In this document: one piece after another, positions 3,549 to 53,285 of the stretch
Position numbering within the stretch: the stretch's first letter is position 1
Layout: each line of letters starts with the position of its first letter
NCBI GenBank assembly: GCA_029565065.1
Contig: JAKQOW010000036.1
Location: 59,846 to 123,845 of the forward strand
Length of the DNA: 64,000 bases
Direction: 5' to 3'
Source: Acidobacteriota bacterium
GTDB taxonomy: Bacteria > Acidobacteriota > JAAYUB01
Position numbers and translations under genes: made by a program
Notes under the pieces: generated by a model
The model's database searches: none
What the model was told of the DNA's origin: nothing
The model's input: only the letters and a program-made list of their open reading frames with translations

Positions 3549-4349
3549 TCAATCCTTCGGCCAGAAGATCAGAATCAGCGGCACGAGCGCCAGGCGGTAC
3601 CAGGCGAACGGCCGGAGCGTCGCGCGGCCCAGCAGGTGGATGAAGCCTTTGACCGCCAGCCACGCCGAGGCGAACGAGACCACGAAGCCGACGAGGAGAA
3701 ACAGCAGGTCGCCGGCGGAGAGCTGGTTCCAACTGCCGGCCAACTCGAAGCAGCCGGCCGCCAGCAGGAGCGGCACGGCGGCGATGAACGAGTACTCGGC
3801 CGCCAGCCGGCGGCCGGCGCCCAGGATCATGGCGCCCATGATGGTGGCGGCAGACCGGGAAAAACCGGGCCAGAGGGACAGGCACTGGAACAGGCCGATC
3901 CCGAGCGCCTGTTTGAAGTCCAGCTCGTCGAGGCTGGCGATGCGCGGGGCGGGCGGCCGGGCCTCGATGACCAAGATGGCCAAGGCGCCCACGGCCAGGG
4001 CCCCGGCCACGGTCAGGGGCGTGAACAGGTGCGTCTTGATCAGCCGATGGACCAGCAAGCCCAGCAGGGCGGCCGGTGCCGACGTGGCGGCGAGCAGCAG
4101 CAGCCCTCGCCAGCCGGAAAACCGGCTGGCCGGATCGGTGCGGAGCAGCCCGATGAAACGCGGCCAGTAGATTACGACCACCGAGAGAATCGCCCCCATC
4201 TGGATGACGATCTCGAACGTGGCGGCCTTGGGCCCCTTGAAATCGAGGAGATAACCGGCCAGAATCAGGTGGCCGGTGGAGGAGACGGGGAGGAACTCGG
4301 TCAGTCCTTCGACGATTCCCAGGATCACGGCGGCGGCGAGTGAGATCAT
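3549..4349 (-). CDS. uppP: Undecaprenyl-diphosphate phosphatase UppP (BacA)
   Basis: Diagnostic GLTEFLPVSSTGHL motif near N-terminus; polytopic membrane protein of 266 aa. Confidence 0.9.
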   Translation of the reverse strand: MISLAAAVILGIVEGLTEFLPVSSTGHLILAGYLLDFKGPKAATFEIVIQMGAILSVVVIYWPRFIGLLRTDPASRFSGWRGLLLLAATSAPAALLGLLVHRLIKTHLFTPLTVAGALAVGALAILVIEARPPAPRIASLDELDFKQALGIGLFQCLSLWPGFSRSAATIMGAMILGAGRRLAAEYSFIAAVPLLLAAGCFELAGSWNQLSAGDLLFLLVGFVVSFASAWLAVKGFIHLLGRATLRPFAWYRLALVPLILIFWPKD

Positions 4350-6163: not shown

Positions 6164-7722
6164 CAGTATGGGCCGCTGGTGTCCAGCGGGCGATGGCGTG
6201 GCTGGGGCATGCGGGTCTGCTCCTGGTCCCGCAGGGAATCCAGCAGCCGGTCAAGCGGCTCGTCCGGCGGGGGAGGCTGCGGTGTGGGCGTCGTCGTCGG
6301 TTCCCGGTGGCGGAGCAGCAGTTCCAGGTTCCAGCGGGCCCCGAAATCCGCAGGGGCGCGCTCCAGGGCGAGCCGGTAGGCGGCCGCGGCCGGCTCGGAC
6401 CGGCCCTGGAGATGGCGGCAGCAGCCCAGATTGTATTGCAGGTCACCTGCGCGGGAGCCGGATCCATCCCGACGAACGGCCGTCTCCAGGACGTTGACGG
6501 CCGCGTCGAGCCGGCCGCCCATGGCCAGCGCCGCGGACAGGTTGGCGGCGGCCAGGGCGTGCGGTTCGCTGCCGGCGGGCGATGCCTCCAGGGAGGCCCG
6601 GTAGGCGGCCGCCGCCCGATCGTAGTCGCCGCTGCGGTAGAAGGCGTTGCCCGCCTCGATCTGCCCGGCCCAGCGGCTCACGTCGCCACAGCCGCCCAGG
6701 GCGGCGGGCAGGAGGATCACCAGGAGCGCCATTTCCGCCGCCGGCGCACGAAACTCGCGGTCCCGCAGCACGAGCAAGGCCCCGAGGATGAGCAGAGCGA
6801 GGCCGGCGGCCCAGGGCGAACGGTCGCGGGCCCGCCGGGCCTTGCCGAAGGTGCCGGACACCTGGTTTTTCAGGTTCTCGTTCAGAATTTCCCGCGCGGT
6901 GACTCCGACGGTTTCCAGCCGGTGGTAATCGCCGGCGAGGGACTGGGCCAGGGCCGTGAGGTGCTCTTCCTGAAGACGGGAGCGGACGTACCGGCCGTCG
7001 CGGTCCTTGATCCAGCTTTGGAAGCGGGTGCGCGGATCCTCGATGAATGAGCCATCGGTGGTGCCGATGCCGACCACGATCAGGTTGACGGCCTCCCGGC
7101 GCAGGGCTTCGATGACCCGGGGCGAGGGCGATTTGAAGGACTCGCCGTCCGAGAGGAAGACGACCGCCAGCTGGCGGCCCGACTCCCGCTTGGCGATCAT
7201 CCGTGACAGCGTGTCCATCGGGGCGTCGAAATTGGTGCCCTGACGGTTGAGCACCTCGGGGCTGATCTGGGCCAGCAGCCGGCCGATGATGTCCATGTCC
7301 GCGGTCATGGGGCAGACGGGGAATGCGCCGCCGGCGAACGCGATCAGGCCGGCGCGCGCCCCGGGCAGCTCCTTGAGGAGGCTCAGTGCGAGGAATGAGG
7401 CCGCCTTGAGACGGGACGGCGGCACATCGCGCGCGGTCATGCTGTAGGAACAGTCGAGTACGAAGTAGATGTCCAGCCCGCTCGTGTAAACGACCTGGAC
7501 CTCGTCGCCCCAGCTGGGTCCGGCCAGGGCGATCAGGATGGCGACGGCCGCGGCCGGGATCAGCCACGCCCGCCCGATCCCCGTGCGCCGCCGGCCCGGT
7601 GTCTGCGGCAGGAACCGGCGGCGCGCTGCGTCGGACCGCCGCCACTGCCAGTACAGCCAGGCCAGCCCGGCGGCCAGCGCCAGCCATACCCAACTTAGCA
7701 GGTAAGCGTTCCGAAACATCAT
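6160..7722 (-). CDS. BatA/BatB-like membrane VWA-domain protein fused to a TPR (BatC-like) domain
   Basis: N-terminal MMFRNAYLLSWVWLALAAGL TM (BatA/B-like), VWA MIDAS-like DxSxS (FVLDCSYSM); second TM then TPR-like repeats. Confidence 0.6.
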   Translation of the reverse strand: MMFRNAYLLSWVWLALAAGLAWLYWQWRRSDAARRRFLPQTPGRRRTGIGRAWLIPAAAVAILIALAGPSWGDEVQVVYTSGLDIYFVLDCSYSMTARDVPPSRLKAASFLALSLLKELPGARAGLIAFAGGAFPVCPMTADMDIIGRLLAQISPEVLNRQGTNFDAPMDTLSRMIAKRESGRQLAVVFLSDGESFKSPSPRVIEALRREAVNLIVVGIGTTDGSFIEDPRTRFQSWIKDRDGRYVRSRLQEEHLTALAQSLAGDYHRLETVGVTAREILNENLKNQVSGTFGKARRARDRSPWAAGLALLILGALLVLRDREFRAPAAEMALLVILLPAALGGCGDVSRWAGQIEAGNAFYRSGDYDRAAAAYRASLEASPAGSEPHALAAANLSAALAMGGRLDAAVNVLETAVRRDGSGSRAGDLQYNLGCCRHLQGRSEPAAAAYRLALERAPADFGARWNLELLLRHREPTTTPTPQPPPPDEPLDRLLDSLRDQEQTRMPQPRHRPLDTSGPYW

Positions 7723-7924
7723 GGGTGATCCTTCAAATCCTCCCCACTATAACATACCCCCCGGACTCCGACCAACGGACTTCCCGCCTCGGTCGGGAGT
7801 CGGACGGCCGCCGTACCATCTGACCCCGCTCGCGGCCTAGGCTTGACAGAAGCGGTAAGGTAGTCTATAAAAATGACACTTCTGAATGACACGGCGGCGA
7901 CATCCGTTGGGTGGGAGGCAGCCC

Positions 7925-8932
7925 ATGCTGTTCAACAAACGCAAGAAGACCATCATCACACTCGGGATCGGGCAGGCGCCTCAGGGAGTGGACGCACCGC
8001 CCGCCCGCAGAACTGACGCGCCCCAAGCCGAGCCGGCAAAAGCTCCGCCAGAACCCGGACTGCCGCTGCGCGCCGAGGAGCCCGCCGCGCCGCCGGTGGC
8101 GATCGCCGAAAAACCAGCGCCCGTGCCGCGGCCCGAGGCGACGCCGGCCGTGGTGCCCGTCCACCCGGCACCGCCGGCGGCGGTCCCGGCGGATGCGCCG
8201 GCGCCGGAATCCGTTGAGACAGCTGCTCCTCCGCAGCCCAGGGCCGAGATGTCGGCTGTCCAGGCGGAGGATATTCCCCAGCAGGGCCTGGAGGCGCCGC
8301 CCGCCGAGTTAGAGATTCAGGCAGAAGGGGTGCCGGGCGAGACGACGGGATTCATCCAGTGCCCGTTCTGCCTCAAGAACAGCCGGGTGGGACTGACCCA
8401 CTGCGAGTCATGCGGCAACCTGATTGAAAGCACGCGGTTGCCGGCGGAACCGGAGCCGGAAGCGGCGGTTCCGGAGCCGGCGGCGCCGGTCGCGTCCGGG
8501 GCTGCCCTGGTGGAGCGGCCCGACCAGGCGGACACCCATCGCCTGGCCCACCACCCCGTGCCCCAGATCCTCAAGGAAACCACGCTGTTCACTCCCGCCA
8601 TGCTCCGGCTGCAGCCGGAGCAGGGGCAGACCGGGGAAAAGATTTATAACCTGAACATCGGCGACAGCACCATCGGGCGCGGCATCGACAACACGCTGGC
8701 GTTCCCCGACGAGGAGTTCATCAGCCGGCGTCACTGCAGCATCGGCTACCACAAGTACCAGTATGTTCTGAAGGATTATGACAGCGCCAACGGGACCTAT
8801 GTGAATGACGTGCGGATCCGGGAGACCATCCTCCGGGACGGTGATTGCGTGCAGATCGGCTCGATGCGTTTCATCTTCGACGATCCCATGGAACGGATCA
8901 AAAAGAAGAAGGCCGCCGCCGGCGAGGATTGA
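7925..8932 (+). CDS. FHA-domain protein with N-proximal C4 zinc-ribbon and Pro/Ala-rich linker
   Basis: C-terminal FHA signature (TIGRGIDNTLAFPDEEFISRRHCSI, YVLKDYDSANGTYVNDVRI); CPFC...CESCG zinc ribbon; GGGAGG RBS 7 nt upstream of ATG 7925. Confidence 0.75.
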   Translation: MLFNKRKKTIITLGIGQAPQGVDAPPARRTDAPQAEPAKAPPEPGLPLRAEEPAAPPVAIAEKPAPVPRPEATPAVVPVHPAPPAAVPADAPAPESVETAAPPQPRAEMSAVQAEDIPQQGLEAPPAELEIQAEGVPGETTGFIQCPFCLKNSRVGLTHCESCGNLIESTRLPAEPEPEAAVPEPAAPVASGAALVERPDQADTHRLAHHPVPQILKETTLFTPAMLRLQPEQGQTGEKIYNLNIGDSTIGRGIDNTLAFPDEEFISRRHCSIGYHKYQYVLKDYDSANGTYVNDVRIRETILRDGDCVQIGSMRFIFDDPMERIKKKKAAAGED

Positions 8933-41616: not shown

Positions 41617-41658
41617 AAACAGTGAACAGTAAACAGTAAACAGTAGACAGTGAATAGT
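41617..41658. repeat. Tandem heptamer array (RAACAGT) x6
   Basis: aaacagt gaacagt aaacagt aaacagt agacagt gaatagt. Confidence 0.7.
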
Positions 41659-41720: not shown

Positions 41721-41809
41721 CACCTGGAACCTGCGAACCTGAGAACCTGCGGACCTGCGACCTGGAACCTGCGAACCTGGAACCTGAGAACCTGGAACCT
41801 GTGAACCTG
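41721..41809. repeat. Tandem 7/8-mer array (N)GAACCTG x~12
   Basis: cacctg gaacctg cgaacctg agaacctg cggacctg cgacctg gaacctg cgaacctg gaacctg agaacctg gaacctg tgaacctg. Confidence 0.75.
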
Positions 41810-42120: not shown

Positions 42121-42159
42121 CGAGTGTCACGGCGCCCGTCCGGCGGACGGGCGCTACTG
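42121..42159 (+). repeat. 39-bp direct repeat copy 2
   Basis: cgagtgtcacggcgcccgtccggcggacgggcgctactg. Confidence 0.7.
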
Positions 42160-42186
42160 CCATTGTGAGGCAACGCGATCGGGGAC

Positions 42187-42215
42187 TTGACAACTGTCAC
42201 GTGACACATTACACT
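42187..42215 (+). promoter_or_regulatory. higBA promoter-like TTGACA-17-TACACT with embedded 12-bp palindrome TGTCACGTGACA (candidate HigA operator)
   Basis: Seen directly; palindrome spans 42195-42206 between -35 and -10 elements. Confidence 0.55.
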
Positions 42216-42221
42216 TGAGGC

Positions 42222-42503
42222 GTGATCAAGAGCTTCGTTGACAAGCATACGGCGGAACTGTTCACGACCGGCCGGTCCAGGCGATTGCCGCCAGACATGG
42301 TGCGTCGGGCGAGAAGAAAGCTCGAGTCCGTCGATCTGGCCGCGCGTCTGGATGACCTTCGGGTTCCTCCGGGCAATCGCCTCCACAAACTCGGCGGAGA
42401 CCGGGAAGGACAGCATGCGATCACCATCAACGACCAGTGGCGCATCTGCTTCCGGTTCGTGGAGGGCGCTGCCTACGATGTTGAAGTGACGGATTATCAC
42501 TGA
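42222..42503 (+). CDS. higB: HigB toxin (RelE/ParE superfamily mRNA interferase)
   Basis: GTG start; product MIKSFVDKHTAELF...LHKLGGDREGQHAITINDQWRICFRFVEGAAYDVEVTDYH closely parallels plasmid/Vibrio HigB (MIKSF..., KLHPLKGDREGYWSI..., ...DYH). Confidence 0.85.
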   Translation: MIKSFVDKHTAELFTTGRSRRLPPDMVRRARRKLESVDLAARLDDLRVPPGNRLHKLGGDREGQHAITINDQWRICFRFVEGAAYDVEVTDYH

Positions 42504-42516
42504 AGCGAGGTGCGGG

Positions 42517-42831
42517 ATGAGCATCCTGAACACGAGACGGAAGATCGTTCGCCCCATCCACCCGGGGGAGATACTTCGGGAGGACTTCCTGCCTGACTAT
42601 GGCCTGACGGCTTCCGGTCTCGCGGCGGCGCTGGGCGTTTCGCGACAGACCGTGAATGAGCTGCTGCGCGAGCGTCGGTCGGTCAGCCCGGAGATGGCGC
42701 TCCGGCTTTCGCGTCTGTTTGGCAACTCCCCCGAGTTCTGGCTGAATGCTCAGCGTACGGTCGACCTCTGGGATGCAGCCCAATCTATCGGACGGGAGGT
42801 CGAGCGGATCAAGCCTTTGTCTGTGGCCTGA
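42517..42831 (+). CDS. higA: HigA antitoxin (XRE-family HTH)
   Basis: IHPGEILREDFL and HTH LAAALGVSRQTVNELLRERRSVSPEMALRLSRLFGNSPEFWLNAQ, typical HigA. Confidence 0.85.
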   Translation: MSILNTRRKIVRPIHPGEILREDFLPDYGLTASGLAAALGVSRQTVNELLRERRSVSPEMALRLSRLFGNSPEFWLNAQRTVDLWDAAQSIGREVERIKPLSVA

Positions 42832-42906
42832 CAACGACTTGCAGCGGATGGTCCACTGCGCGGCCCGCCGCTGAACCGGAGCGTTAGGCGGCTTACGACA
42901 TCATCA

Positions 42907-43848
42907 TTGCGGAGTATCGATTTGGAAGAAAAAACTGAAATTACGACCTTGCTTGAGAGAATTGCGATCGCGCTTGAGCGAATAGCAGACTTGCTTGCCA
43001 GACCAGACCAATCAGAAGATTCGTCTGGTCTGGTTGATTCAGAACCTCCTATTGCTCCCGAACCAACAGAACCTGCGCCTTCTACCAACGATATTACCTG
43101 GCTGCGGGACTTTCTTGCTTCACGGGGGATTTCAATAAAGACCATTCCTCAGGAGCAAGAGAGCGATGAAACTCTCGACAAGATAGCCTTGTTCATTGGG
43201 AACAGGCTAGAATCAGTCAATAGTGTTCTCGATTCCATCAAGGCGAATATGAATGTTGGGAGACCGTTCAGTCTGAATCTGAGAAACGAGTCCCAACAAA
43301 CCGTTGCAGATACAACCAATCTGTGTACAAATCTCTATAACATCGCCTTTCTTACAGCATACTACTATCAGAAATCCCCAGCCTATCAGCTTTATGCAAC
43401 CCCAAGCACATCGCCCAGAGCATTGAATTTTTATTCCGGACAATGGTTGGAGCGATTCATCAAGATCCAAGCCGTCTCGCTACTCAGAAGCAAATCGCTT
43501 GAATTCTCCTATATCTGCAATGCTCAAATTTCATTGCCAAAGGGGGATGATTTTGAACTGGATATGTTGTTTGAGGCAGAGGGAGAAGTGTTCTGGCTAG
43601 AAGCGAAAACTGGTGATTATAGAAGGCATATCGAAAAATATTCCAAGATGTCCAAGACTTTAGGTCTAGACCGCTCACATACCTTTATGATATTGGCGGA
43701 TGGCTCGGTAACTGACGCTCTGGCGCGCGACTTGGGTAATTTGTTTGGAATGACTGTGGCAAGGGTTGAGAAATTTGCAGAGCAATTGACCAAAGTGCTA
43801 CCCAAAAACCGCAATGAGACAGTTCAAGGTCGAGAAATATCACCATGA
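42907..43848 (+). CDS. Hypothetical low-GC protein with C-terminal PD-(D/E)xK nuclease-like motif
   Basis: No in-frame ATG near start (TTG/alternative start); Pro-rich linker; GDDFELDMLFEAEGEVFWLEAKTG fits D...E-x-K restriction-endonuclease-like core; GC well below genome average. Confidence 0.5.
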   Translation: MRSIDLEEKTEITTLLERIAIALERIADLLARPDQSEDSSGLVDSEPPIAPEPTEPAPSTNDITWLRDFLASRGISIKTIPQEQESDETLDKIALFIGNRLESVNSVLDSIKANMNVGRPFSLNLRNESQQTVADTTNLCTNLYNIAFLTAYYYQKSPAYQLYATPSTSPRALNFYSGQWLERFIKIQAVSLLRSKSLEFSYICNAQISLPKGDDFELDMLFEAEGEVFWLEAKTGDYRRHIEKYSKMSKTLGLDRSHTFMILADGSVTDALARDLGNLFGMTVARVEKFAEQLTKVLPKNRNETVQGREISP

Positions 43849-43965
43849 CCAGACGCCCAACAAGCGCTTGCAGCGGACGCTCGCTACGCTCGCAGCGCTG
43901 AAGCGCCAGCCGTTAGCCCGAAAGAGATTCGGGGCGACATGAGGACCAATGTGATATGAGTAAGG

Positions 43966-45432
43966 ATGACCATGTTTGAACAAGCTTTCAAGAATATTGA
44001 CGATGTGCTTTGGAAGGATGCCGGGTGTACCAGTGAACTGGATTACACCGAGCAGACTTCCTGGCTGCTATTCCTGAAATACCTCGATGCACTGGAGGCC
44101 GACCGTGCCACGGCTGCCGCCCTGAACGGCAAGACCTACACCCACATTCTGGATAAACCATACCGCTGGGGCTCCTGGGCCGCGCCGAGGGGCAAGGATG
44201 GCTCGATTGACCACAACACCGCTCTAACCGGCGACGACCTGATCCAGTTCGTCAACGGCAAGCTTTTCCCTTACCTGCACGGCTTCAAGCAGAAGGCTAG
44301 CGGGCCGAACACGGTCGAATACAAGATCGGCGAGATTTTCGGCGAGATCAAGAACCGCATCCAGAGCGGCTACAACCTACGCGAGGTCATTGACCAAATT
44401 GATGAACTGCGCTTCGCGTCGCAAGTTGAGAAGCACGAGCTTTCGCACCTGTACGAGGCGAAGATCAAGAACATGGGCAACGCCGGGCGCAACGGCGGCG
44501 AGTATTACACCCCGCGCCCGCTCATCCGCGCCATCGTGGCGGTGGTCGCGCCCAAGCTCGGCGAGACCATCTGCGACCCGGCGGTCGGCTCGGCGGGCTT
44601 CCTGTGCGAGGCATTCGAATATCTCAAGGCTCAGAACCCGAAGCGCACCACCGCCCAGGACCGCGCCTTGCAGGAGCGCACCTTCTTCGGCAAGGAAAAG
44701 AAGTCGCTGGCCTACGTCATCGCGATCATGAACATGATCCTGCACGGCATCGAGGCGCCCAACATCCTCCACGTCAACACGCTGGCCGAGAACCTGGCCG
44801 ACGTGCAGGAAAAGGACCGATTCGACATCATCCTCGCCAATCCGCCTTTTGGCGGCAAGGAGCGCAAGGAGGTCCAGCAGAACTTCCCAATTCGCACCGG
44901 TGAAACGGCTTTTCTCTTCCTCCAGCACTTCATCAAGGTACTCAAGGCCGGCGGCCGGGCGGGGATCGTCATCAAGAATACGTTTCTGAGCAACACCGAC
45001 AATGCCTCCGTAAGCCTGCGGCGGAAACTGCTGGAGGAATGCAACCTGCATACCGTGCTCGACTGCCCCGGCGGCACGTTCCAGGGCGCGGGCGTGAAGA
45101 CCGTGGTGCTGTTTTTCGAGAAGGGCGCGAAGACCAGGAAGGTGTGGTACTACCAACTCGACCCCGGCCGCAGCCTCGGCAAGACCAACCCGCTCAATGA
45201 TGACGACCTCGCCGAGTTCGTGCAGCTCCAGAAGACCTTCGCCGACTCACCCAAGAGCTGGAGCGTTGACGCCAATTATATTGATCCGACCACTTTCGAC
45301 CTCTCCGTGAAGAACCCCAACGGCGGCGAGACCGTGACCCACCGCAGTCCGCAGGAGATCATGGAAGAAATCGCCGTCCTAGACATCGAAAGCGCTGAGG
45401 TGCTGGAGAAGATCAGGGGGCTGCTGAAATGA
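43966..45432 (+). CDS. hsdM: Type I restriction-modification system, DNA methyltransferase subunit M (N6-adenine)
   Basis: HsdM N-domain; SAM-binding DPAVGSAGFL; catalytic NPPFG motif. Confidence 0.9.
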   Translation: MTMFEQAFKNIDDVLWKDAGCTSELDYTEQTSWLLFLKYLDALEADRATAAALNGKTYTHILDKPYRWGSWAAPRGKDGSIDHNTALTGDDLIQFVNGKLFPYLHGFKQKASGPNTVEYKIGEIFGEIKNRIQSGYNLREVIDQIDELRFASQVEKHELSHLYEAKIKNMGNAGRNGGEYYTPRPLIRAIVAVVAPKLGETICDPAVGSAGFLCEAFEYLKAQNPKRTTAQDRALQERTFFGKEKKSLAYVIAIMNMILHGIEAPNILHVNTLAENLADVQEKDRFDIILANPPFGGKERKEVQQNFPIRTGETAFLFLQHFIKVLKAGGRAGIVIKNTFLSNTDNASVSLRRKLLEECNLHTVLDCPGGTFQGAGVKTVVLFFEKGAKTRKVWYYQLDPGRSLGKTNPLNDDDLAEFVQLQKTFADSPKSWSVDANYIDPTTFDLSVKNPNGGETVTHRSPQEIMEEIAVLDIESAEVLEKIRGLLK

Positions 45433-46571
45433 AGAAGGGGTGGGAAACGAGGCGTATCGATGAGCTTTGCATAGTGGTCGCCGGGCAATCGCCGGAGGGG
45501 AAGTTCTATAACTCCGAGGGTCGGGGCCTTCCGTTCTATCAAGGTAAAAAGGACTTTGGGGAAAAGTTCATCGAGGCACCCACCACTTGGACAACGCAGA
45601 CGACCAAGATTGCCAAACAGGGCGATATCTTGATGTCCGTCCGCGCACCTGTTGGCCCTGTGAATTTTTCCACCGAGGAAATCTGCATTGGGCGCGGATT
45701 AGCTGCGATACGCTGCGGGACACAACTGAATCGAGATTTTCTTTTCTACCAGTTGCTCCACTTACAGCCTGAGATTGCTGGGAAAGAAGGCGCAGTGTTC
45801 GCATCAATCAACAAATCCGAAATCGAAGCCTTGCCGCTCGCGTTTACCCCGCTCCCCGAACAGCAGCGGATCGTGGGGGTATTGGATGAAACTTTTGCTG
45901 GTCTGGCCACCGCCCAAGCCAACGCCGAAAAGAACCTCCTGAACGCCCGCGCCCTATTCGAAAGCCACATGAATGACGTGTTCAGCAAGCGGGGCGAAGG
46001 GTGGGTGGAGAAGACGTTGGGGAAAATCGGCAAGGTCTCCATGTGCAAGAGAATCTTCAAGGAGGAGACGACAGCGACCGGAGACATTCCATTCTACAAG
46101 ATTGGGACTTTCGGAAAAGAGCCCGATGCATTCATTTCAAGCCAAACCTACAATGAATACAGGGCGAGATACCCCTTTCCTAAAAAAGGCGATATTCTTA
46201 TCTCGGCGTCGGGAACAATCGGGCGACGCGTCAGATACGACGGTGAACCCGCATATTTTCAGGACTCGAATATCGTCTGGATTGATAACGATGAAAGACA
46301 GGTGTCGAACGACTACCTGTATCACTTCTACGGAGCCTGTGAGTGGAACTCGACGAAAGGCGCTACCATATCGCGACTCTACAATGACAATCTGAGGCAA
46401 ATCGCTATTGCATTCCCTGAATCGAGTCAGGAGCAGCGGCGGATTGTCACCCAACTCGACTCCCTCTCCGCCGAAACCCGCCGCTTGGCCGCCATCTACG
46501 AGCGGAAGCTGGCGGCGCTGGAGACGCTGAAGAAATCGCTTCTACATCAGGCGTTTAACGGAGAACTGTGA
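45429..46571 (+). CDS. hsdS: Type I restriction-modification system, specificity subunit S
   Basis: Overlaps hsdM by ATGA; two target-recognition domains separated by a conserved central helix (LPEQQRIVGVLDETFAGLATAQANAEKN) and C-terminal helix (QEQRRIVTQLDSLSAETRRLAAIYERK). Confidence 0.85.
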   Translation: MKKGWETRRIDELCIVVAGQSPEGKFYNSEGRGLPFYQGKKDFGEKFIEAPTTWTTQTTKIAKQGDILMSVRAPVGPVNFSTEEICIGRGLAAIRCGTQLNRDFLFYQLLHLQPEIAGKEGAVFASINKSEIEALPLAFTPLPEQQRIVGVLDETFAGLATAQANAEKNLLNARALFESHMNDVFSKRGEGWVEKTLGKIGKVSMCKRIFKEETTATGDIPFYKIGTFGKEPDAFISSQTYNEYRARYPFPKKGDILISASGTIGRRVRYDGEPAYFQDSNIVWIDNDERQVSNDYLYHFYGACEWNSTKGATISRLYNDNLRQIAIAFPESSQEQRRIVTQLDSLSAETRRLAAIYERKLAALETLKKSLLHQAFNGEL

Positions 46572-46572
46572 C

Positions 46573-47496
46573 ATGAAAAGCTACTACCGAGTCATGTTGG
46601 GTGAAAAGAGCAAGTATGCCGAGGAGTGTTTTGCAGCGAACTGCATTGCCGCCGGCTTCATCCCTGATCAGAACTTGAAAGGAAAGTTGCCCGATCAATG
46701 GCGCACCTTCAATAAACAGTTTATTCCCGTGTTCCTCGCCGCTCATCCGGAGAAAACAAAAATCGGTGCAGGGCTAGCTTGTGGCGCGTTGTGGACGGTA
46801 TGCAAAGGGATGCAAAATGGCGATATAGTCTTATGTCCTGACGGCACGGGCAGATACCGGGCCGGTGAAATCAGTGGCGATTACTTTTATGAGCCCAGCA
46901 AGCACTTGTGCCATAGACGGCCTGTGACTTGGCTGAACGTGATGATTGACCGGGCCACGATGAGTGAGCCGCTGCGCAAATCCACCGGTTCAATCGGCAC
47001 GGTGAGCAACATCACGCTGCACCGCGATGAAATTGAAAAGCACACCGGCGGCGTTTCAACTCCGAAACTAATTTCCACCGACACCACAGTTGAGGACGCC
47101 TCTGCTTTCGCATTAGAAGAGCATTTGGAGGATTTCCTCGTCAAAAATTGGTCTCACACCGAACTCGGCAAAGATTACACAATTTACGAGGAGGACGGAG
47201 AGAAAGCACAGCAATACCAGACCGACACAGGACCGTTGGACATCCTCGCGATCAGCAAGGACAAAAAACATCTGTTGGTTGTGGAGTTGAAAAAGGGACG
47301 GGCCAGTGATCTGGTGGTCGGACAGACTCTCCGCTACATGAGCTTCGTCCAGGATGAATTGGCTGAGGAGGGACAGACAGTGCGGGGGTTGATAATCGCT
47401 CACGAGGACGATCAAAAAATCCGGCGCGCCCTCAGCATGACACCCAACATTTCCTTCTATCGCTACCAAGTCAGTTTCAAGTTAATGAAGGGATGA
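46573..47496 (+). CDS. Embedded cassette gene A: hypothetical protein with C-terminal PD-(D/E)xK (NucS/Mrr-cat-like) nuclease motif
   Basis: GPLDILAISKDKKHLLVVELKKGRASDLVVGQTLRYMSF ... VRGLIIAHEDD fits D-x(n)-E-L-K nuclease core; N-terminal ~150-aa domain of unknown function; starts 2 nt after hsdS stop. Confidence 0.6.
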   Translation: MKSYYRVMLGEKSKYAEECFAANCIAAGFIPDQNLKGKLPDQWRTFNKQFIPVFLAAHPEKTKIGAGLACGALWTVCKGMQNGDIVLCPDGTGRYRAGEISGDYFYEPSKHLCHRRPVTWLNVMIDRATMSEPLRKSTGSIGTVSNITLHRDEIEKHTGGVSTPKLISTDTTVEDASAFALEEHLEDFLVKNWSHTELGKDYTIYEEDGEKAQQYQTDTGPLDILAISKDKKHLLVVELKKGRASDLVVGQTLRYMSFVQDELAEEGQTVRGLIIAHEDDQKIRRALSMTPNISFYRYQVSFKLMKG

Positions 47497-47497
47497 C

Positions 47498-47593
47498 ATG
47501 AACGAAGCTGAAACGAGAGCCGAGCATATTGATCCCGCGCTGGCGGCGTTGAAGAAGTCGCTGCTGCTCCTGGCCTTTGCAGGAGAACTGTGA
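47498..47593 (+). pseudogene. Chimeric remnant: 51-nt hsdR 5' fragment (MNEAETRAEHIDPALAA) fused to 45-nt hsdS 3' fragment (LKKSLLLLAFAGEL-stop)
   Basis: 47498-47548 is 47/51 nt identical (all 4 differences synonymous) to hsdR start at 48391-48441. 47549-47593 parallels the hsdS 3' end at 46527-46571 (LKKSLLHQAFNGEL-stop). Confidence 0.8.
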
Positions 47594-48375
47594 TGAATAT
47601 GAAGAAATACTGCTACGACACAGAACCGATAGCCGGAATTGAGAAGCTGTGTGAGCGAATGACGGGGAAGGCGTTACAGTCTCCGTATCGTTCCACTGTG
47701 CCTTTACTGAGCCTCGTTGAACACAGTCAGCCTGAATGGCATTCGCTATTGGCGTCGTTGGGGACGCCGCCTGACCGAACGGTCCACTTTGAATACTGCA
47801 TCGCCTCGCCAAAGCCTGGAGGAAATCCGTCACAGACAGACGCCCTGCTGATGTCAGATTCAACTGTGTGGGCCGTTGAGGCGAAGTGGACAGAACCTCG
47901 GTATGAAACAGTGGCGAAAAGAATAAGCAAACCAGAGTCGGACGGCGCTGATCCGCGAACCACGGTTGATGGCTGGCTGAAATATCTCCAGCCGTTTACA
48001 ACACGAGATTTGCGCGTCGATGACTTTTTGGATGTGGTATATCAAGTATTGCATCGCGCCGCATCGGCGTGTGCTGTCGCAACCGATCTGCAACTCTCGC
48101 CGCACCTTGTGTATCTGCATTTTCATCCATCCCCGCTGGAGAGTTCCGCGACGACCGATCAGTATGTCTCGGACCTTCAGCATCTATATGCGTTGCTCGG
48201 CAATCCCTCCACCCTGAAGATCACCGTGGTTGAAATGCCGCTCAAGCCGACTGCGGAATTTGATGCCATCAAGGGTCTGGATAAGCGAGATCCAGGATCT
48301 GCCGCTGTGGTGAAAGCGGCGCTGTGCAAAGAGCCATTATTTACTTTCGGAAGCCCGATCATTACGCGATCATGA
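47593..48375 (+). CDS. Embedded cassette gene B: hypothetical protein with PD-(D/E)xK restriction-endonuclease-like core
   Basis: HFEYCIASPKPGGNPSQTDALLMSDSTVWAVEAKWTE contains E...D...E-A-K pattern; start overlaps remnant stop (TGATG). Confidence 0.55.
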   Translation: MNMKKYCYDTEPIAGIEKLCERMTGKALQSPYRSTVPLLSLVEHSQPEWHSLLASLGTPPDRTVHFEYCIASPKPGGNPSQTDALLMSDSTVWAVEAKWTEPRYETVAKRISKPESDGADPRTTVDGWLKYLQPFTTRDLRVDDFLDVVYQVLHRAASACAVATDLQLSPHLVYLHFHPSPLESSATTDQYVSDLQHLYALLGNPSTLKITVVEMPLKPTAEFDAIKGLDKRDPGSAAVVKAALCKEPLFTFGSPIITRS

Positions 48376-48390
48376 GGTCAGATCTCACGC

Positions 48391-50718
48391 ATGAACGAAG
48401 CCGAAACCAGAGCCGAGCACATTGACCCCGCGCTGGCGGCGGCGGGCTGGGGCGTCGTGGAGGGCAGCCGCGTGAGGCGGGAGTTTCCCATCACGCCGGG
48501 GCGCATCGAGGGGCTGGGCCGGCGCGGAAAGCCGCTGACCGCCGATTACGTTCTGGAATACCGCAACCGCAAACTGGCCGTAATCGAGGCCAAGGCGTGG
48601 GATCAAGAGTTGACCGAAGGAGTGGCGCAGGGCAAGAACTACGCGGGCAAGCTGCAGGTGCGCTTTGTCTATGCCACAAACGGGCGGGGCATCTACGCGA
48701 TAGACATGCAGACGGGCAAGGAAGGCGAGATCGCCGCCTACCCAACCCCGGACGAACTCTGGGCGATGACCTTTGCCGAGGAGAACGCCTGGCGGGACCG
48801 GTTCGCGGCGGTGCCGTACGAGGACAAGGGCGGCTCGCATCCGACGCGTTACTACCAGGACATCGCCATCGAGCGGGTGATGCAGGCCATTTCGGAGAAC
48901 CGGACGCGCATCCTGCTGACGCTGGCCACCGGAACGGGGAAAACCTTCATCGCATTCCAGATCGCGTGGAAGCTGTTCCATGCGCGCTGGAACCTCTCCC
49001 GCGAACCGACGCGCCGGCCGCGCATCCTGTTCTTGGCCGACCGGAACATCCTGGCGAACCAGGCTTACAACGCCTTCTCCGCCTTCCCCGAGGACGCGCT
49101 GGTGCGGATCGAGCCGGGCGACATCCGCAAGAAAGGCAAGGTGCCGAAGAACGGCAGCCTGTTTTTCACCATCTTCCAGACGTTCATGAGTGGTCCGCCC
49201 AAGGACGGCCGACCGTCACCCTATTTCGGCGAATACCCGCCGGACTTCTTCGACTTTATCGTGATTGATGAGTGCCATCGCGGCGGGGCGAACGACGAGA
49301 GCACCTGGCGTGGCATCCTGGACTACTTCGCGCCCGCCGTGCAGCTCGGCCTCACCGCCACACCCAAGCGCGATGAGAACGTGAACACCTACCGCTATTT
49401 CGGCGAGCCGGTCTATATGTATTCGCTCAAGGACGGGATCAACGACGGCTTCCTGACCCCGTTCAAGGTGAAGCAGATCCAGACCACGCTGGACGAGTAC
49501 GTGTACACGCCGGACGACACGGTGATCGAAGGCGAGATCGAGGAGGGCAAGCGGTACGAAGAGGCGGACTTCAACCGCATCATCGAGATCAGGAAACGCG
49601 AGGAATACCGGGTCAGAATCTTCATGGATCTGATCAACCAGAACGAGAAGACGCTGGTGTTCTGCGCGAACCAGGCCCACGCCCTGGCCGTGCGCGACCT
49701 CGTCAACCAGCTGAAGACCAGCAAGGACCCGAACTACTGCCAGCGGGTGACGGCGAACGACGGTGAGCTGGGCGAGCAGCATTTGCGCGACTTCCAGGAC
49801 AACGAGAAGACGATCCCGATGGTCCTGACCACGTCACAGAAGCTCTCGACGGGGGTGGACGCTCGGAACATCCGCAACATCGTCCTGATGCGGCCCATCA
49901 ACCGGCTCATCGAGTTCAAACAGATCATCGGGCGCGGCACCCGGCTCTATGACGGCAAAGATTACTTCACGATCTACGACTTCGTGAATGCGCACGAGCA
50001 TTTCAGCGATTCTGGGTGGGACGGCGAGCCGATGGCCCCGGAACCGCACGAGATCTATCCGCCGCACGAACCGAGCCTGGCAGGCGAAGTGCGGGAACCC
50101 AGGGAGAAATATCCAAAACGCCAGCGGGTGAAAGTGAAACTGGCGGACGGCAAGGAGCGCACCATCCAGCACATGATGATGACGAGCTTCTGGCATCCCG
50201 ACGGCACGCCCATGTCCGCGCAGCAGTTCATGGAACTGCTCTTCGGAAAGCTCCCGTACTTCTTCAAGGACGAAGCCGAACTCCGGGCCATTTGGAGTGC
50301 GCCTGACACGCGCAAAAAGTTATTGCAGGGCTTGGCCGAGAAGGGCTTCGGGCATGACCAACTGGCTGAGATGCAGACGATCATCGACGCCGAGAAGAGC
50401 GATCTGTTCGACGTGCTCGCCCATGTTGCCTACGCCTTGCCGCCCGTCACGCGTGAAGTCCGCGCCGCGAATGCGAGAGTTCACATCAATACCCGTTTCA
50501 GCGACAAGCAGAAGGTGTTCCTCGATTTCGTGCTCCAGCATTACATCACGGTCGGCGTGGAAGAGCTCGATCAAGAAAAGCTTACCCCGCTGCTCCTGCT
50601 CAAGTACCACAATTCCCTGGCGGATGCCGTTGCCGACCTGGGCGGCCGGCCCGAAGAGATAAGCAAAGCCTTCGCCGGGTTCCAGAAATATCTCTATCAG
50701 CAAACGTCTGCGGCATGA
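48391..50718 (+). CDS. hsdR: Type I restriction enzyme, R subunit (nuclease plus SF2 helicase)
   Basis: N-terminal nuclease motif LAVIEAKAW; Walker A LATGTGKT; DEAH-like VIDECHR; motif VI QIIGRGTRL. Confidence 0.9.
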   Translation: MNEAETRAEHIDPALAAAGWGVVEGSRVRREFPITPGRIEGLGRRGKPLTADYVLEYRNRKLAVIEAKAWDQELTEGVAQGKNYAGKLQVRFVYATNGRGIYAIDMQTGKEGEIAAYPTPDELWAMTFAEENAWRDRFAAVPYEDKGGSHPTRYYQDIAIERVMQAISENRTRILLTLATGTGKTFIAFQIAWKLFHARWNLSREPTRRPRILFLADRNILANQAYNAFSAFPEDALVRIEPGDIRKKGKVPKNGSLFFTIFQTFMSGPPKDGRPSPYFGEYPPDFFDFIVIDECHRGGANDESTWRGILDYFAPAVQLGLTATPKRDENVNTYRYFGEPVYMYSLKDGINDGFLTPFKVKQIQTTLDEYVYTPDDTVIEGEIEEGKRYEEADFNRIIEIRKREEYRVRIFMDLINQNEKTLVFCANQAHALAVRDLVNQLKTSKDPNYCQRVTANDGELGEQHLRDFQDNEKTIPMVLTTSQKLSTGVDARNIRNIVLMRPINRLIEFKQIIGRGTRLYDGKDYFTIYDFVNAHEHFSDSGWDGEPMAPEPHEIYPPHEPSLAGEVREPREKYPKRQRVKVKLADGKERTIQHMMMTSFWHPDGTPMSAQQFMELLFGKLPYFFKDEAELRAIWSAPDTRKKLLQGLAEKGFGHDQLAEMQTIIDAEKSDLFDVLAHVAYALPPVTREVRAANARVHINTRFSDKQKVFLDFVLQHYITVGVEELDQEKLTPLLLLKYHNSLADAVADLGGRPEEISKAFAGFQKYLYQQTSAA

Positions 50719-50790
50719 TAGGTGCGAGAAGATAATAGGTTAACAAACAGTTACAGCGGACGGCTCGCAGCGCGGCCCTCCGCTTAACCG

Positions 50791-51522
50791 ATGGATGAGT
50801 GTTCAGATGGGAAAGGAATGATAACAAAGTGGCTACATATCAGTGAACTGGGGGGCGATCCCTGGATTTTGCCGATCTGGACGGCTGTGAATGAAGCTGT
50901 GAAATCTGGTAAAGCCACCGATCTTCAGCCCGAAGTGTACCGTCTTGGATTACACGTCTCACTACGACTGAATATCTTGCCTCGGGTAGTCAAACGGGTG
51001 AATTCCAACACATTGCTCTTGTATAGAATCATCAGAGAACACGGACCCGAGTATGTTTCGACTGAAGCAATTAGGGGATACGCATTTCCTGTCGATGATG
51101 ATCTGAAGTACTCATTGTTAGCTGATATCGATGCCCTGCTCTTTGAACTCAATTCGGTTTGTGAACTTATGAAGAATCTTTTTGGGTTATTGCAGGCGCA
51201 TATTGGCCGGCCGATACATAAAGATAAGATTGGCAAAGCTTTAAATGATGTACTTTCTCAAAGTACCCGGAATGCAAATTGGTTTGCAATGTTGGATGAG
51301 CATAGAAATTTTTTTATGCACAATGGTGCTCCGTACATAGCCGTGGATCTTTCGAATGAGCCGGTGGAATTGGAAATTCTGATTATGAAAGAAAATATAA
51401 AGAGCTTTACAGATCCAGCAAAATTCGTTTCACTTTCGCAGATCAATTCTATTGTCCAAGGGTTTATAGATTCGAAACAAAAGCTGCAAGACTATTTGAT
51501 ATCACTCTTCAAACAGGAGTAA
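50791..51522 (+). CDS. Hypothetical AT-rich protein with Rx4H (HEPN-like) motif, downstream of hsdR
   Basis: Lowest GC in the window; EHRNFFMHNG contains R-x4-H; alternative start ATG 50818 with AAAGGA RBS. Confidence 0.45.
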   Translation: MDECSDGKGMITKWLHISELGGDPWILPIWTAVNEAVKSGKATDLQPEVYRLGLHVSLRLNILPRVVKRVNSNTLLLYRIIREHGPEYVSTEAIRGYAFPVDDDLKYSLLADIDALLFELNSVCELMKNLFGLLQAHIGRPIHKDKIGKALNDVLSQSTRNANWFAMLDEHRNFFMHNGAPYIAVDLSNEPVELEILIMKENIKSFTDPAKFVSLSQINSIVQGFIDSKQKLQDYLISLFKQE

Positions 51523-51541
51523 GCGCGAACCAGCAAATCCA

Positions 51542-52213
51542 GTGAACAGCTTTCAAATCCACCAGACCACGCGCCGCGTGGCGGTTGATTCTCGGCGTTT
51601 GAAGGCAGCTGCAGATATCATGTCTGACAACAAGCTTATTCTTCATCCCATCGATCCCATGGCAAGCCTACCGTCGGTGTCCGCGGTACGGATCCGCCTC
51701 TCTGAGATTGGTCTCATCGGGCCGCCCATCGAGTATTACGGAAAGACACATTATCTTCAGGGTCCGCGATTTGAAGCGCTCGTGCCGTTCGCCCATTCGC
51801 ATCGGTCCGTAGTCCTCACTTCAATTGATCCCACCTTCTTCACACCACGCATCACCGACAGTCGCAGCATCGTTTCCATAGAAATCTGCCAACCGACCGA
51901 CGCTATCGAATTTCTTGGGGCGGGCAACGTAGAAAGCCCCTGCTGTCCCTCGTGTGACTTCGAGATCAAGGATTGGGCGGCCTTGGTCTCGACGTGGTGT
52001 AACAACAAATGCACATACCAGTGGACTTGTCCGGGTTGTCAGCGCAGCTGGAGACCCTGGCATCTCGATTGGCGCGGCACGAACGGTTTTGGTCGCTTCG
52101 CCATTGCCTTCTGGAACGTCCATCAAAGCGAAGCCATACCCAGCCAGGAACTTCTAGAGGTTGTTCACGAAGTCTGCGGCACGCCGTGGACCTTCTTCTA
52201 CTATCGGCTTTAG
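51542..52213 (+). CDS. Hypothetical protein with C-terminal Cys-rich (zinc-binding-like) region
   Basis: CCPSCDF...CNNKCTYQWTCPGCQRSW; start uncertain (51542 or 51620). Confidence 0.4.
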   Translation: MNSFQIHQTTRRVAVDSRRLKAAADIMSDNKLILHPIDPMASLPSVSAVRIRLSEIGLIGPPIEYYGKTHYLQGPRFEALVPFAHSHRSVVLTSIDPTFFTPRITDSRSIVSIEICQPTDAIEFLGAGNVESPCCPSCDFEIKDWAALVSTWCNNKCTYQWTCPGCQRSWRPWHLDWRGTNGFGRFAIAFWNVHQSEAIPSQELLEVVHEVCGTPWTFFYYRL

Positions 52214-52669
52214 GTCCTGCAATATGTTCCAGGCATGCAGTGAACTGCCACTGTTGACTGGCAGAAGGTCGTATTTATGGAACCCATGCAATTCAATACT
52301 ATCGCGGTCAGAACGACTTCGTCGTGATGCTATCAATGTGAGCCGGCGGTTGCTGAGAGACGCTGACGGAGTGGCGTGTCATCTCAGGTGAGGCGCCGCG
52401 AGGACCCCTCCCGCGTCGACGCCGCTACCACTCCAACAACAGTCGTCTTCGCAGTAATGGTTGGGAAGATGCAGTGCGGGTTGACACGGATGGGTTCAGA
52501 TGGTAAAGGACGATAACGATATGGCCATACCTGATTTTGGGAGTGCGATCTGTACACGTCTGATGTTTTGAGCTGACTGTAAGGATCACGCCGACCATGA
52601 GGCGCCCGACGCACTCGCTCTTGGAGCAACCTACCTGAGGATGGATTAAAGACGTGATGGAGACATGAC

Positions 52670-53200
52670 ATGCGCAAGGAGTACGGGAAAGCGCTCCGGC
52701 AGTATTTCGCCAAGCAGATGAAGGAGCGACTCCCGGAATTCAAAGAGGAGACGGTGCAGTCCGTGTACCTGTGGCCCGGGCAGCGGGCGTTCGGCCGGTC
52801 CGTCTCCGGTTCGCTGAAGTGCTGGATCGTGCTCAGCCCCAGCCCCAAGGACTACGACGAGTTCACGGTCCTGATCGGATGGTCGACGTGGGGGCGCTAT
52901 CCGGAGCTATCGGTGATCCCGTCCATCCAATCGCCGTCGCCGGACCGGGCGGAGTTCAGCCAGCCGGAGTACCTCACGCGACTCCCGCAGCTCTGGACCC
53001 AGCGGGACGAATGGTGGGTGATTCAGAAGTTCGAGCCGGCGCTCACCGTGGAGCAGATGACGGCCCGGATGGCGCCCATCCCGGCGCCGGCGGCCGAGGC
53101 GAAAGTGATCCCTCGCGTGGACGACGCCATCGACCAGGTGATCAAGATCGGCATCCCTTATCTTTCCGAGTTCGTCAACACAAGGGAAGGAAGCGAATGA
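52670..53200 (+). CDS. Hypothetical protein (176 aa)
   Basis: High-GC ORF with consistent codon usage; no recognisable motif. Confidence 0.45.
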   Translation: MRKEYGKALRQYFAKQMKERLPEFKEETVQSVYLWPGQRAFGRSVSGSLKCWIVLSPSPKDYDEFTVLIGWSTWGRYPELSVIPSIQSPSPDRAEFSQPEYLTRLPQLWTQRDEWWVIQKFEPALTVEQMTARMAPIPAPAAEAKVIPRVDDAIDQVIKIGIPYLSEFVNTREGSE

Positions 53201-53285
53201 CCCGAAGTATCCGGCGGCGCGCCCGGCGCGCGCCGCCGCGGCGCCGGCGTCGGTCCTCAACTCAGACTGAAGGAGTGACACATCC

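Follow-up and report, generated by a model that had tools for sequence, protein, structure and literature searches.

Campylobacter Type I restriction-modification (R-M) loci carry rlo (restriction-linked open reading frame) genes between hsdS and hsdR. In the EcoprrI Type IC operon the accessory defence gene embedded in this way encodes PrrC (PMC12707154; bioRxiv 10.1101/2024.01.29.577857). Embedding of defence genes is already known from Type I R-M, BREX and DISARM operons; the embedded genes have been catalogued in a text that does not contain the word "recombination" and leaves the origin and the significance of embedding to be explored (bioRxiv 10.1101/2024.01.29.577857). Genes embedded in R-M, BREX and DISARM operons are now a main source of new anti-phage systems. 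Here we analyze a 64,000-nucleotide (nt) stretch of an Acidobacteriota genome (assembly GCA_029565065.1, contig JAKQOW010000036.1, positions 59,846 to 123,845), referred to below as the window. Between hsdS and hsdR of its Type I operon lie two embedded genes, A and B, separated by a 96-nt open reading frame (ORF) that is a chimera of an hsdR 5' head and the hsdS 3' tail of another locus. Most probably, this ORF (the scar) is a joint that marks where a resident Type IB operon, already equipped with A, received a second module with an embedded gene.

As in the PrrC and rlo cases, the accessory genes of the window are co-oriented with the operon and lie between hsdS and hsdR, and the same idea of a back-up for evaded R-M applies. 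Unlike PrrC, A and B belong to other nuclease families and not to the anticodon nucleases, and the R-M system is of family IB, not IC. No mention of a recombination joint in the PrrC or rlo cases was found in the searchable papers. With the catalogued embedded genes the locus shares a full-length PDC-S02 gene (gene A), surveyed cargo of the same kind and co-orientation with the operon; it differs in that the joints themselves are described here and that gene B is outside the PADLOC models.

Three recombination systems offer further parallels. First, homology-facilitated illegitimate recombination in natural transformation, reportedly described by de Vries and Wackernagel, uses one homologous anchor, the other end being joined at microhomology. 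In the window, hsdR would likewise be the anchor and a short GC-rich microhomology would serve the other end, but a joint of this type recurs at one in-frame register, set by two conserved coding termini. Second, integron cassettes are also promoterless, co-oriented, stacked genes expressed from a host operon, with recognizable boundaries and a conceivable circular intermediate. The window, however, has no integrase, attC or attI and no evidence of site-specific recombination, and its boundaries are pieces of the flanking host genes. An integron-like or site-specific system was rejected: a scan of neighbouring ORFs, which did not include every small one, gave no recombinase Pfam family, and the cassette boundaries are hsdS and hsdR fragments, not att-like repeats. 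Third, shuffling of target-recognition domains (TRDs) in hsdS and phase-variable Type I systems also use conserved Type I stretches as recombination substrates, and the first TRD does differ between the window and its nearest relative. TRD shuffling, however, swaps like with like inside hsdS and is often driven by an invertase, whereas the joint in the window links the beginning of hsdR with the hsdS end and brings in additional genes. No described hsdR-head/hsdS-tail joint or embedding mechanism was found in the searchable literature, which leaves most subscription journals outside. Embedded genes are known, and the recurrent joint as a trace of their stacking appears undescribed.

The 96-nt Chimeric ORF

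The ORF at 47498-47593 encodes, in 31 codons, MNEAETRAEHIDPALAA followed by LKKSLLLLAFAGEL and a stop. Its head half (47498-47548) is identical to the start of hsdR (48391-48441) at 47 of 51 positions, and all four differences are synonymous; the probability that four random substitutions would all be synonymous is 0.003-0.008. Of the 45 positions of the tail half (47549-47593), 34 agree with the tail of the resident hsdS (46527-46571) and up to 39 with other real hsdS tails; the tail half carries L-L where real hsdS tails have a conserved H-Q. The nearest relatives of the head half are resident-type heads, that of the related locus L007 (48/51) and that of the hsdR in the window (47/51).

DNA profiles of hsdR heads (79 real sequences) and of hsdS tails (about 57 real sequences) were made, and both strands of the window were scanned with them. 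They matched only the true gene ends and the scar, whose halves gave E = 1.8e-12 and 1.3e-12, respectively; a degenerate head-then-tail pattern occurred once in the window and in none of 100 shuffles. A reading of the window made earlier from its letters alone (hereafter, the sequence-only reading) had proposed the order hsdS, A, 96-nt remnant, B, hsdR with the coordinates used here, an hsdR origin of the first 51 nt with synonymous differences only, and a likeness of the last 45 nt to the hsdS C-terminus. The ORF listing and direct reading confirm the layout, the direct alignments bear out both halves, and the profile and shuffling results place the similarity to other hsdR and hsdS ends beyond chance.

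An assembly chimera as the origin of the scar is ruled out, because 16 contigs from four independent sources (ENA, JGI, NCBI and Logan assemblies) show the identical arrangement.

On its left side the scar starts directly after the stop of gene A (TGAcATG), and on its right side its stop overlaps the start of gene B (TGATG). A Shine-Dalgarno-like AGGAG (47581-47585) lies within the hsdS tail, 7 nt upstream of the ATG of gene B. Both halves would thus bring native coupling signals, TGAcATG on the left and AGGAG with TGATG on the right. Since the 31-codon ORF keeps these signals, B and hsdR would probably stay translationally coupled and the operon functional.

Comparison with the Sister Locus and Origin of Gene B

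The nearest relative, L007, has the gene order HigB-HigA-308aa-hsdM-hsdS-A-hsdR at about 90-92% DNA identity, and its gene A, the closest to that of the window, is 94% identical to it. There the stop of A abuts the start of hsdR, and neither B nor a small ORF is present. Collinear blastn matches between the window and L007 cover 42130-45470, 45847-47548 (i.e., through the head half of the scar) and 48391-50786, at 89.6-92.2% identity. The window therefore corresponds to an L007-type locus plus 893 nt. This insert may be drawn equivalently as 47498-48390, with a 51-nt direct repeat on either side (47498-47548 and 48391-48441). The window hsdR is 92.2% identical to that of L007, with mismatches spread evenly from the first nucleotide; on this comparison the hsdR body is the resident copy, not that of a donor. 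L007 and the window thus provide a before-and-after pair which, together with the defined register described below, would make the joint a physical trace of embedding.

The segment of hsdS encoding the first TRD (45470-45847) is unrelated to its counterpart in L007, in contrast to about 90% identity elsewhere in the operon. DNA specificity has thus, judging from the alignment, been swapped between close relatives.

Gene B was found between hsdS and hsdR in seven of the seven contexts examined (the window, L010, L011 and L113-L116), and hsdS is directly followed by B in L010, L113, L114, L115 and L116. In L010 the hsdS stop overlaps the start of B (CTGTGATGAA), the same overlap as that between the scar stop and B in the window, and most of the seven contexts have it. 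As this native overlap matches the one at the scar, B would have come with the end of a former hsdS. Since the four differences between the two heads are all synonymous, the heads appear to have diverged under selection in separate loci and not as a dead local copy. Addition of B from another locus, not local duplication, is supported by these comparisons, and the independent loci put forward in the sequence-only reading agree with the absence of B and scar from L007, the hsdS-B arrangement of the L010 type and the synonymous differences.

Two of the other B loci have features of their own. In L114 (7001-8708) the order is hsdM-hsdS-B-A-hsdR, that is, the two cargo genes of the window are reversed and joined seamlessly (TGAgATG). 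In L011 a decayed 33-codon hsdR-head remnant (MNEAVARAGNIDPELIAADW..., 7903-8001), in a register different from that of the window scar, lies directly upstream of B, and a DUF429 cargo gene with a PDC-S44 match ends in the hsdS-tail-like residues AFTGALQ (7500-7524).

Register and Formation of the Joint

Head and tail have a microhomology in common, CCCGCGCTGGCGGCG, at 47534-47548. The junction sequence is CCCGCGCTGGCGGCG/GCGGGC in the live hsdR, GCCGCGCTGGAGGCG/TTGAAA in the L010-type hsdS tail and CCCGCGCTGGCGGCG/TTGAAG in the scar. The likeness between hsdR heads and hsdS tails resides in the motif CCGCGCTG-NNG-GCG; its translation is P-A-L-x-A in the hsdR frame and A-A-L-E/D-A in that of hsdS. 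When all 15-mer registers between the hsdR head (66 nt) and the hsdS tail (78 nt) were compared over about 30x30 loci, the highest mean identity (9.0/15) was found for head nt 37-51 against tail positions -60 to -46, which is the register of the joint. The L010-type tail matches the head at the joint at 14/15 positions, and the alignments of the head and tail profiles share 13 nt (47535-47547). Because both motifs have the same codon phase, a crossover at the joint is automatically in frame.

These features can be accommodated by the following scheme. The incoming module would have consisted of the last 45 nt of a donor hsdS, gene B and an hsdR start, derived from another EcoAI-family operon. 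On the left, the first 51 nt of the resident hsdR would have been fused in frame to the donor hsdS tail by an illegitimate join at the microhomology, which falls in the sole stretch where EcoAI-family hsdR heads resemble hsdS tails. On the right, an ordinary homologous exchange close to the 5' end of hsdR may have completed the insertion. The sequence-only reading had also described a unit of hsdS tail, cargo and hsdR head, and this part stands as a description of the incoming module; its proposal of homologous recombination between like ends does not, and a probable illegitimate in-frame join of hsdR head to hsdS tail takes its place.

Survey of EcoAI-Type Operons

A search with an alignment of five HsdR sequences traced the HsdR family of the window to at least 568 species-representative genomes, at 70-83% protein identity. 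Its hosts belong to many phyla, including Proteobacteria, Nitrospirota, Acidobacteriota, Verrucomicrobiota, Planctomycetota, Gemmatimonadota and Actinomycetota (L025-L104). Such unusually high conservation of HsdR across phyla implies, as far as sequence identity can tell, frequent horizontal transfer of the operon.

Eighty loci were kept for the survey, and both gene ends were visible in 66 of them. A strict regular expression lost several real hsdS tails, and nhmmer profiles were used for the corrected counts. Cargo of 0.3-4.2 kb separates hsdS from hsdR in about 50 of the 66 loci (about three quarters), and in 15-16 the two genes are adjacent. The cargo proteins form more than 50 clusters, of kinds typical of defence or toxin genes, such as GmrSD, Fic, HEPN/MNT, ABC ATPases, PDC-S13, PDC-S44 and PDC-M63A. 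The variable cargo for which the sequence-only reading suggested surveying homologous loci is a property of the family. Head or tail remnants were present in 5 of the 80 loci.

Recurrence and Decay of Joints

Many unrelated bacteria share this in-frame head-tail chimera. Metagenomes and metagenome-assembled genomes yielded at least 20 distinct sequences that contain it, with varied flanking cargo and in every degree of decay. In a pattern scan of metagenomes, 12 of 13 loci were true chimeras, nine of them with an intact 31-codon ORF in the canonical register. The genes beside the scars include Bro-N, HEPN/MNT, Macro, RhuM/Fic, DUF6932, a NucS-like protein and a small gene X. The unbiased genome survey contained the canonical scar and a 35-codon variant (in L048 and L051), one protein cluster comprised 15 distinct variants of 31-37 aa annotated as hypothetical, and one further scar variant was present on at least 39 contigs. 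Other types of joint also exist: a 7-codon head (L019), the L023 joint described below, the 35-codon joint of L051 and a head fused to a Y1-transposase-like gene (L091). Longer hsdS-tail remnants are seen in L042 and L082, and frameshifted or decayed copies of the scar in L017, L020 and L011. The scar pattern had no match in viral contigs. The joint, described as unusual in the sequence-only reading, turns out to be a recurrent feature of EcoAI-family R-M loci, and repeated formation followed by neutral decay fits the pattern of scars, some of which do share descent; older joints may also have spread.

The joint thus looks like a general, recombinase-free route for concatenating arrays of embedded defence genes in EcoAI-type operons. 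A further step, to which we give somewhat less than an even chance, is that the start of hsdR and the end of hsdS together form a built-in cassette junction: an in-frame crossover hot spot that works without a recombinase, joins up or duplicates embedded defence arrays of different operons, leaves a 31-codon ORF preserving translational coupling, and produces scars that could be used as provenance tags. Joints of this kind can be counted and dated across genomes, the reaction could be attempted in the laboratory, and decayed joints could mark cargo that was once housed in a Type I operon.

Several loci with scars show rearrangements of other kinds. In L012 (reverse-complement 667-1113 and 2059-2286), the small gene X (MTAPFPIPTGLH...) starts both after the true hsdS and after the scar. 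The tail half of this scar is identical to the tail of its own hsdS (45/45), and the L012 scar would fit an unequal exchange within one locus, i.e., an array duplication. L023 (reverse-complement 1206-1394) contains a 62-codon ORF in which the head of hsdM (43 aa) is fused directly to an hsdS tail; the hsdM head is 98% identical to residues 3-45 of the window HsdM. This collapsed hsdM-hsdS unit adjoins a Fic cargo and a second, short head-tail scar. In L091 (596-1438), as well as in L044 and L094, the first 13 codons of a cargo gene related to Y1 (IS200-like) transposases are the hsdR head; hsdS precedes this cargo gene and the true hsdR follows it.

A relic locus between PNPase and polyprenyl synthase is seen in L105-L112 (e.g., L105 6608-9546). 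What remains of it is a 188-aa fusion of an hsdM fragment and X, Bro-N, a 31-codon scar, HEPN, MNT and a truncated hsdR of 208 aa; in L111 and L112 the hsdR stub has also been lost. The scar variant of L105-L112 occurs in 79 blocks of the collection. Cargo and scar have, on this gene content, outlived the R-M genes. L008 carries a DISARM class 1 operon (DrmD and DrmMI, E = 0) with three embedded genes, gene A among them (relevant segments, 3925-3996, 4592-4629 and 5560-5572). A 72-nt hsdS-tail remnant follows drmD (E = 2e-15), a cargo protein of 201 aa ends in QVFGGEL, and the next ORF opens with 13 nt of the hsdR head, which suggests that the array moved from a Type I operon into DISARM. If so, scars record the movement of cargo arrays into other systems, as in L008, and their survival beyond the R-M genes, as in L105-L112.

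Alternative Explanations

Several observations weigh against the splicing of a second module into the operon, or against the joint as a general route. A right-hand crossover, sought as a divergent 5' tract of hsdR relative to L007, was not found, mismatches being even from nt 1; an hsdR anchor is plausible and the microhomology at the joint does lie in the best register. When the three 51-nt heads are compared, the scar and L007 share two of the four differing sites and the live hsdR head and L007 share the other two, and polarizing these differences with L007 is uninformative at 8% background divergence. No close donor was found, the best homologue of B being about 82% identical at the protein level. 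L114 stacks B and A without any head or tail remnant, so that stacking can do without a scar. Identity within the microhomology is modest (mean 9/15, with a longest exact run of usually 3-8 nt). The junction codons GAG, AAG and GCG are one nucleotide apart and unsafe as markers of separate crossovers; their use as proof of two-sided crossovers (E/D as tail-type, A/K as head-type) was dropped for this reason. Finally, the search pattern favoured the canonical register (gap of 15-45 nt), which introduces an ascertainment bias, and some scars (L012, L014 and L018) are clearly of common descent.

According to another explanation, one or a few ancient joints spread as a linker and homologous recombination in the scar halves swaps the cargo, recurrence being a matter of inheritance and not of a hot spot. 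In its favour, the scar and the downstream gene X are common to L012, L014 and L018, L012 and L024 have the same layout (Bro-N - scar - X' - HEPN - MNT), junction codons vary by single-nucleotide changes, and 9 of 12 pattern matches are in one register. However, scar halves resemble other scars no more closely than they resemble real gene ends, other registers exist (L019, L023, L051, L011 and L091), at least seven different cargo pairings are found beside scars, and in the window the scar head is closest to resident-type heads (48/51 and 47/51) and the sister locus has no scar, which fits formation in the lineage of the window. We therefore consider wholesale inheritance of an ancient joint doubtful.

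A different entry of the DNA would lead to the same structure by an equivalent route, in which an excised circle enters by one crossover. Recombination between flanking CCGCGCTG-NNG-GCG repeats would excise a circle containing cargo and joint, which would then integrate into another operon through the 51-nt head or the 45-nt tail, much like an integron cassette but with no need of an integrase. A circle predicts just what is seen, from the 51-nt direct repeats to an hsdR body of resident type right from its first nucleotide, and repeats flanking the cargo are found in donor-type loci. On the other hand, neither a circle junction nor a reciprocal hsdS-hsdR fusion was seen, although no search aimed at them was made, single crossovers on 45-51 nt at about 90% identity are inefficient, and linear homology-facilitated insertion yields the same product; since the right-hand crossover is unlocated, the two cannot be told apart by their outcome. 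The circular route seems to us rather unlikely.

Less probable still is that the 31-codon ORF is a selected functional element, i.e., a micro-protein or a leader needed for downstream expression. Its frame is intact in 9 of 12 pattern matches, the arrangements around it (TGAcATG, TGATG, and AGGAG 7 nt before the ATG of B) are classic for translational coupling, and it is annotated as a hypothetical protein in many assemblies. Yet the peptide merely consists of two protein termini, and near-invariant positions of the hsdR head are relaxed in scars: among 30 distinct scars 11 deviate there, compared with 3 among 79 real heads (Fisher p = 3e-5). Moreover, the tail half in the window has L-L in place of H-Q at conserved positions, the copies in L017 and L020 are frameshifted, and L114 stacks B and A without such an ORF. 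A function of the peptide as such is unlikely; selection for translation of the scar, i.e., for coupling, is possible and compatible with its origin as a splice joint.

Local duplication of the first 51 nt of hsdR, by transposition-like insertion of B or by replication slippage, would account for an insert bounded by 51-nt direct repeats of 92% identity, but is highly improbable, as it leaves the 45-nt hsdS tail in the joint unexplained (this half rules out a target-site duplication, and at 34/45 it is no copy of the resident tail), four synonymous differences out of four are unexpected for a dead copy diverging in place, no transposase domain (no such Pfam family) was found in the ten ORFs scanned, a scan not directed at terminal inverted repeats, and the overlap of hsdS tail and B is native in other genomes.

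Predicted Functions of Genes A and B

Gene A matches the PADLOC model PDC-S02 (PDLC04824) with E = 4.4e-147, residues 1-306 aligning with positions 1-307 of the 308 in the profile. Its predicted model has two domains. The N-terminal one (Pfam DUF8426) has structure matches to VcaM4I (10.6), the EVE protein PH1033 (10.2) and YTH domains (8.4-9.6), while the C-terminal one matches NucS and has the PD-(D/E)xK fold, with D223, E238 and K240 invariant. Gene A is therefore predicted to be a modification-dependent (Type IV-like) endonuclease with a PUA/EVE-like reader and a NucS-like nuclease. In such a role it would act against phages that evade the Type I enzyme by means of modified DNA. The combination of a PUA-superfamily reader with a nuclease is shared with VcaM4I (EVE-HNH) and with MspJI and AspBHI (SRA-like domain and PD-(D/E)xK); gene A differs in that its putative reader, DUF8426, is outside the recognized EVE families and its nuclease is NucS-like. 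EVE proteins have been linked to Type I R-M systems (PMC7641849). PDC-S02 genes occupy the hsdS-hsdR interval in the window, L007 and L114, and in L008 one is embedded between drmD and drmMI of DISARM. No experimental validation of PDC-S02 is mentioned in the titles and abstracts of the papers that mention it.

Gene B is a member of DUF6946, which was set up from a "functionally dark" cluster (PMC10584680), and has no PADLOC or NCBIfam model. Its predicted structure (predicted local distance difference test, pLDDT, 94.5; predicted template modeling score, pTM, 0.91) has a PD-(D/E)xK fold, in which E67, D83, E96 and K98 are invariant over 55 sequences with identity down to 45%; the protein is, on this model, a PD-(D/E)xK nuclease. 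PD-(D/E)xK-like cores had been recognized in both proteins by the sequence-only reading (D-ILA...VVELKKG in A, TDALL...VEAKW in B), and these motifs contain the invariant catalytic residues of the modeled folds.

No tblastn match to A or B was obtained in the 80 surveyed hsdR loci, so that neither gene is common cargo. Both are candidate effectors that could be tested, PDC-S02 as a reader with a nuclease and DUF6946 as a family confined, among the contexts examined, to the interval from hsdS to hsdR.

Operon Layout and Genomic Island

Coordinates of the operon and of the island around it are given in Table 1.

Table 1. Features of the R-M operon and the surrounding island (window coordinates).
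Feature	Position	Strand	Evidence or remark
Low-GC island	42200..53250	n/a	composition profile; 41-63% GC vs about 67-70% on flanks
hsdM, Type I methyltransferase subunit	43966..45432	+	Pfam N6_Mtase 2e-62 and HsdM_N; PADLOC MTase_I 1e-164
hsdS, specificity subunit	45429..46571	+	Pfam Methylase_S 7e-42, two stretches
hsdS junction-register 15-mer GCGGCGCTGGAGACG	46512-46526	+	
hsdS conserved 3' tail LKKSLLHQAFNGEL, then stop	46527-46571	+	S-tail profile match spans 46497-46570
Gene A, 307 aa, embedded defence candidate PDC-S02	46573..47496	+	
31-codon chimeric ORF, putative recombination joint (scar)	47498..47593	+	hsdR head, then hsdS tail
893-nt block (hsdS tail, B, 15-nt spacer, hsdR head)	47549..48441	+	absent from L007
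Gene B, 260 aa, DUF6946, between hsdS and hsdR	47593..48375	+	
hsdR, Type IB (EcoAI/FtnUII family) restriction subunit	48391..50718	+	NCBIfam NF046051

The hsdM, hsdS and hsdR genes are co-oriented and overlap or abut, and HsdS has two TRDs. The HsdR protein matches NF046051 with 817.7 bits (cutoff 550; residues 1-770, profile length 768) and contains Pfam ResIII and EcoEI_R_C; because it belongs to the EcoAI/FtnUII family, the system is, by sequence classification, Type I of family IB (EcoAI-like). No convincing terminator was found on the + strand between hsdM and the end of hsdR.

The operon lies in a low-GC island of about 11 kb together with HigBA (Pfam HigB), a 313-aa protein and three uncharacterized ORFs. 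The latter (243, 223 and 176 aa) are located 3' of hsdR, at 50791-53200, where GC content falls to 41%, and had no match in any of the libraries. Similarity to L007 stops at 50786, the right flank of the island differing between the sister loci. The 313-aa ORF (42907-43848), just upstream of hsdM, has 44-48% GC and a counterpart in L007; it has no Pfam family and gives weak PADLOC matches to CARF-associated PD-(D/E)xK nucleases (best 8e-06). The left end of the island, immediately before HigB, contains two short tandem-repeat arrays (41617-41658 and 41722-41809), in which AAACAGT is repeated five times and ACCTGAGAACCTGGA about six times.

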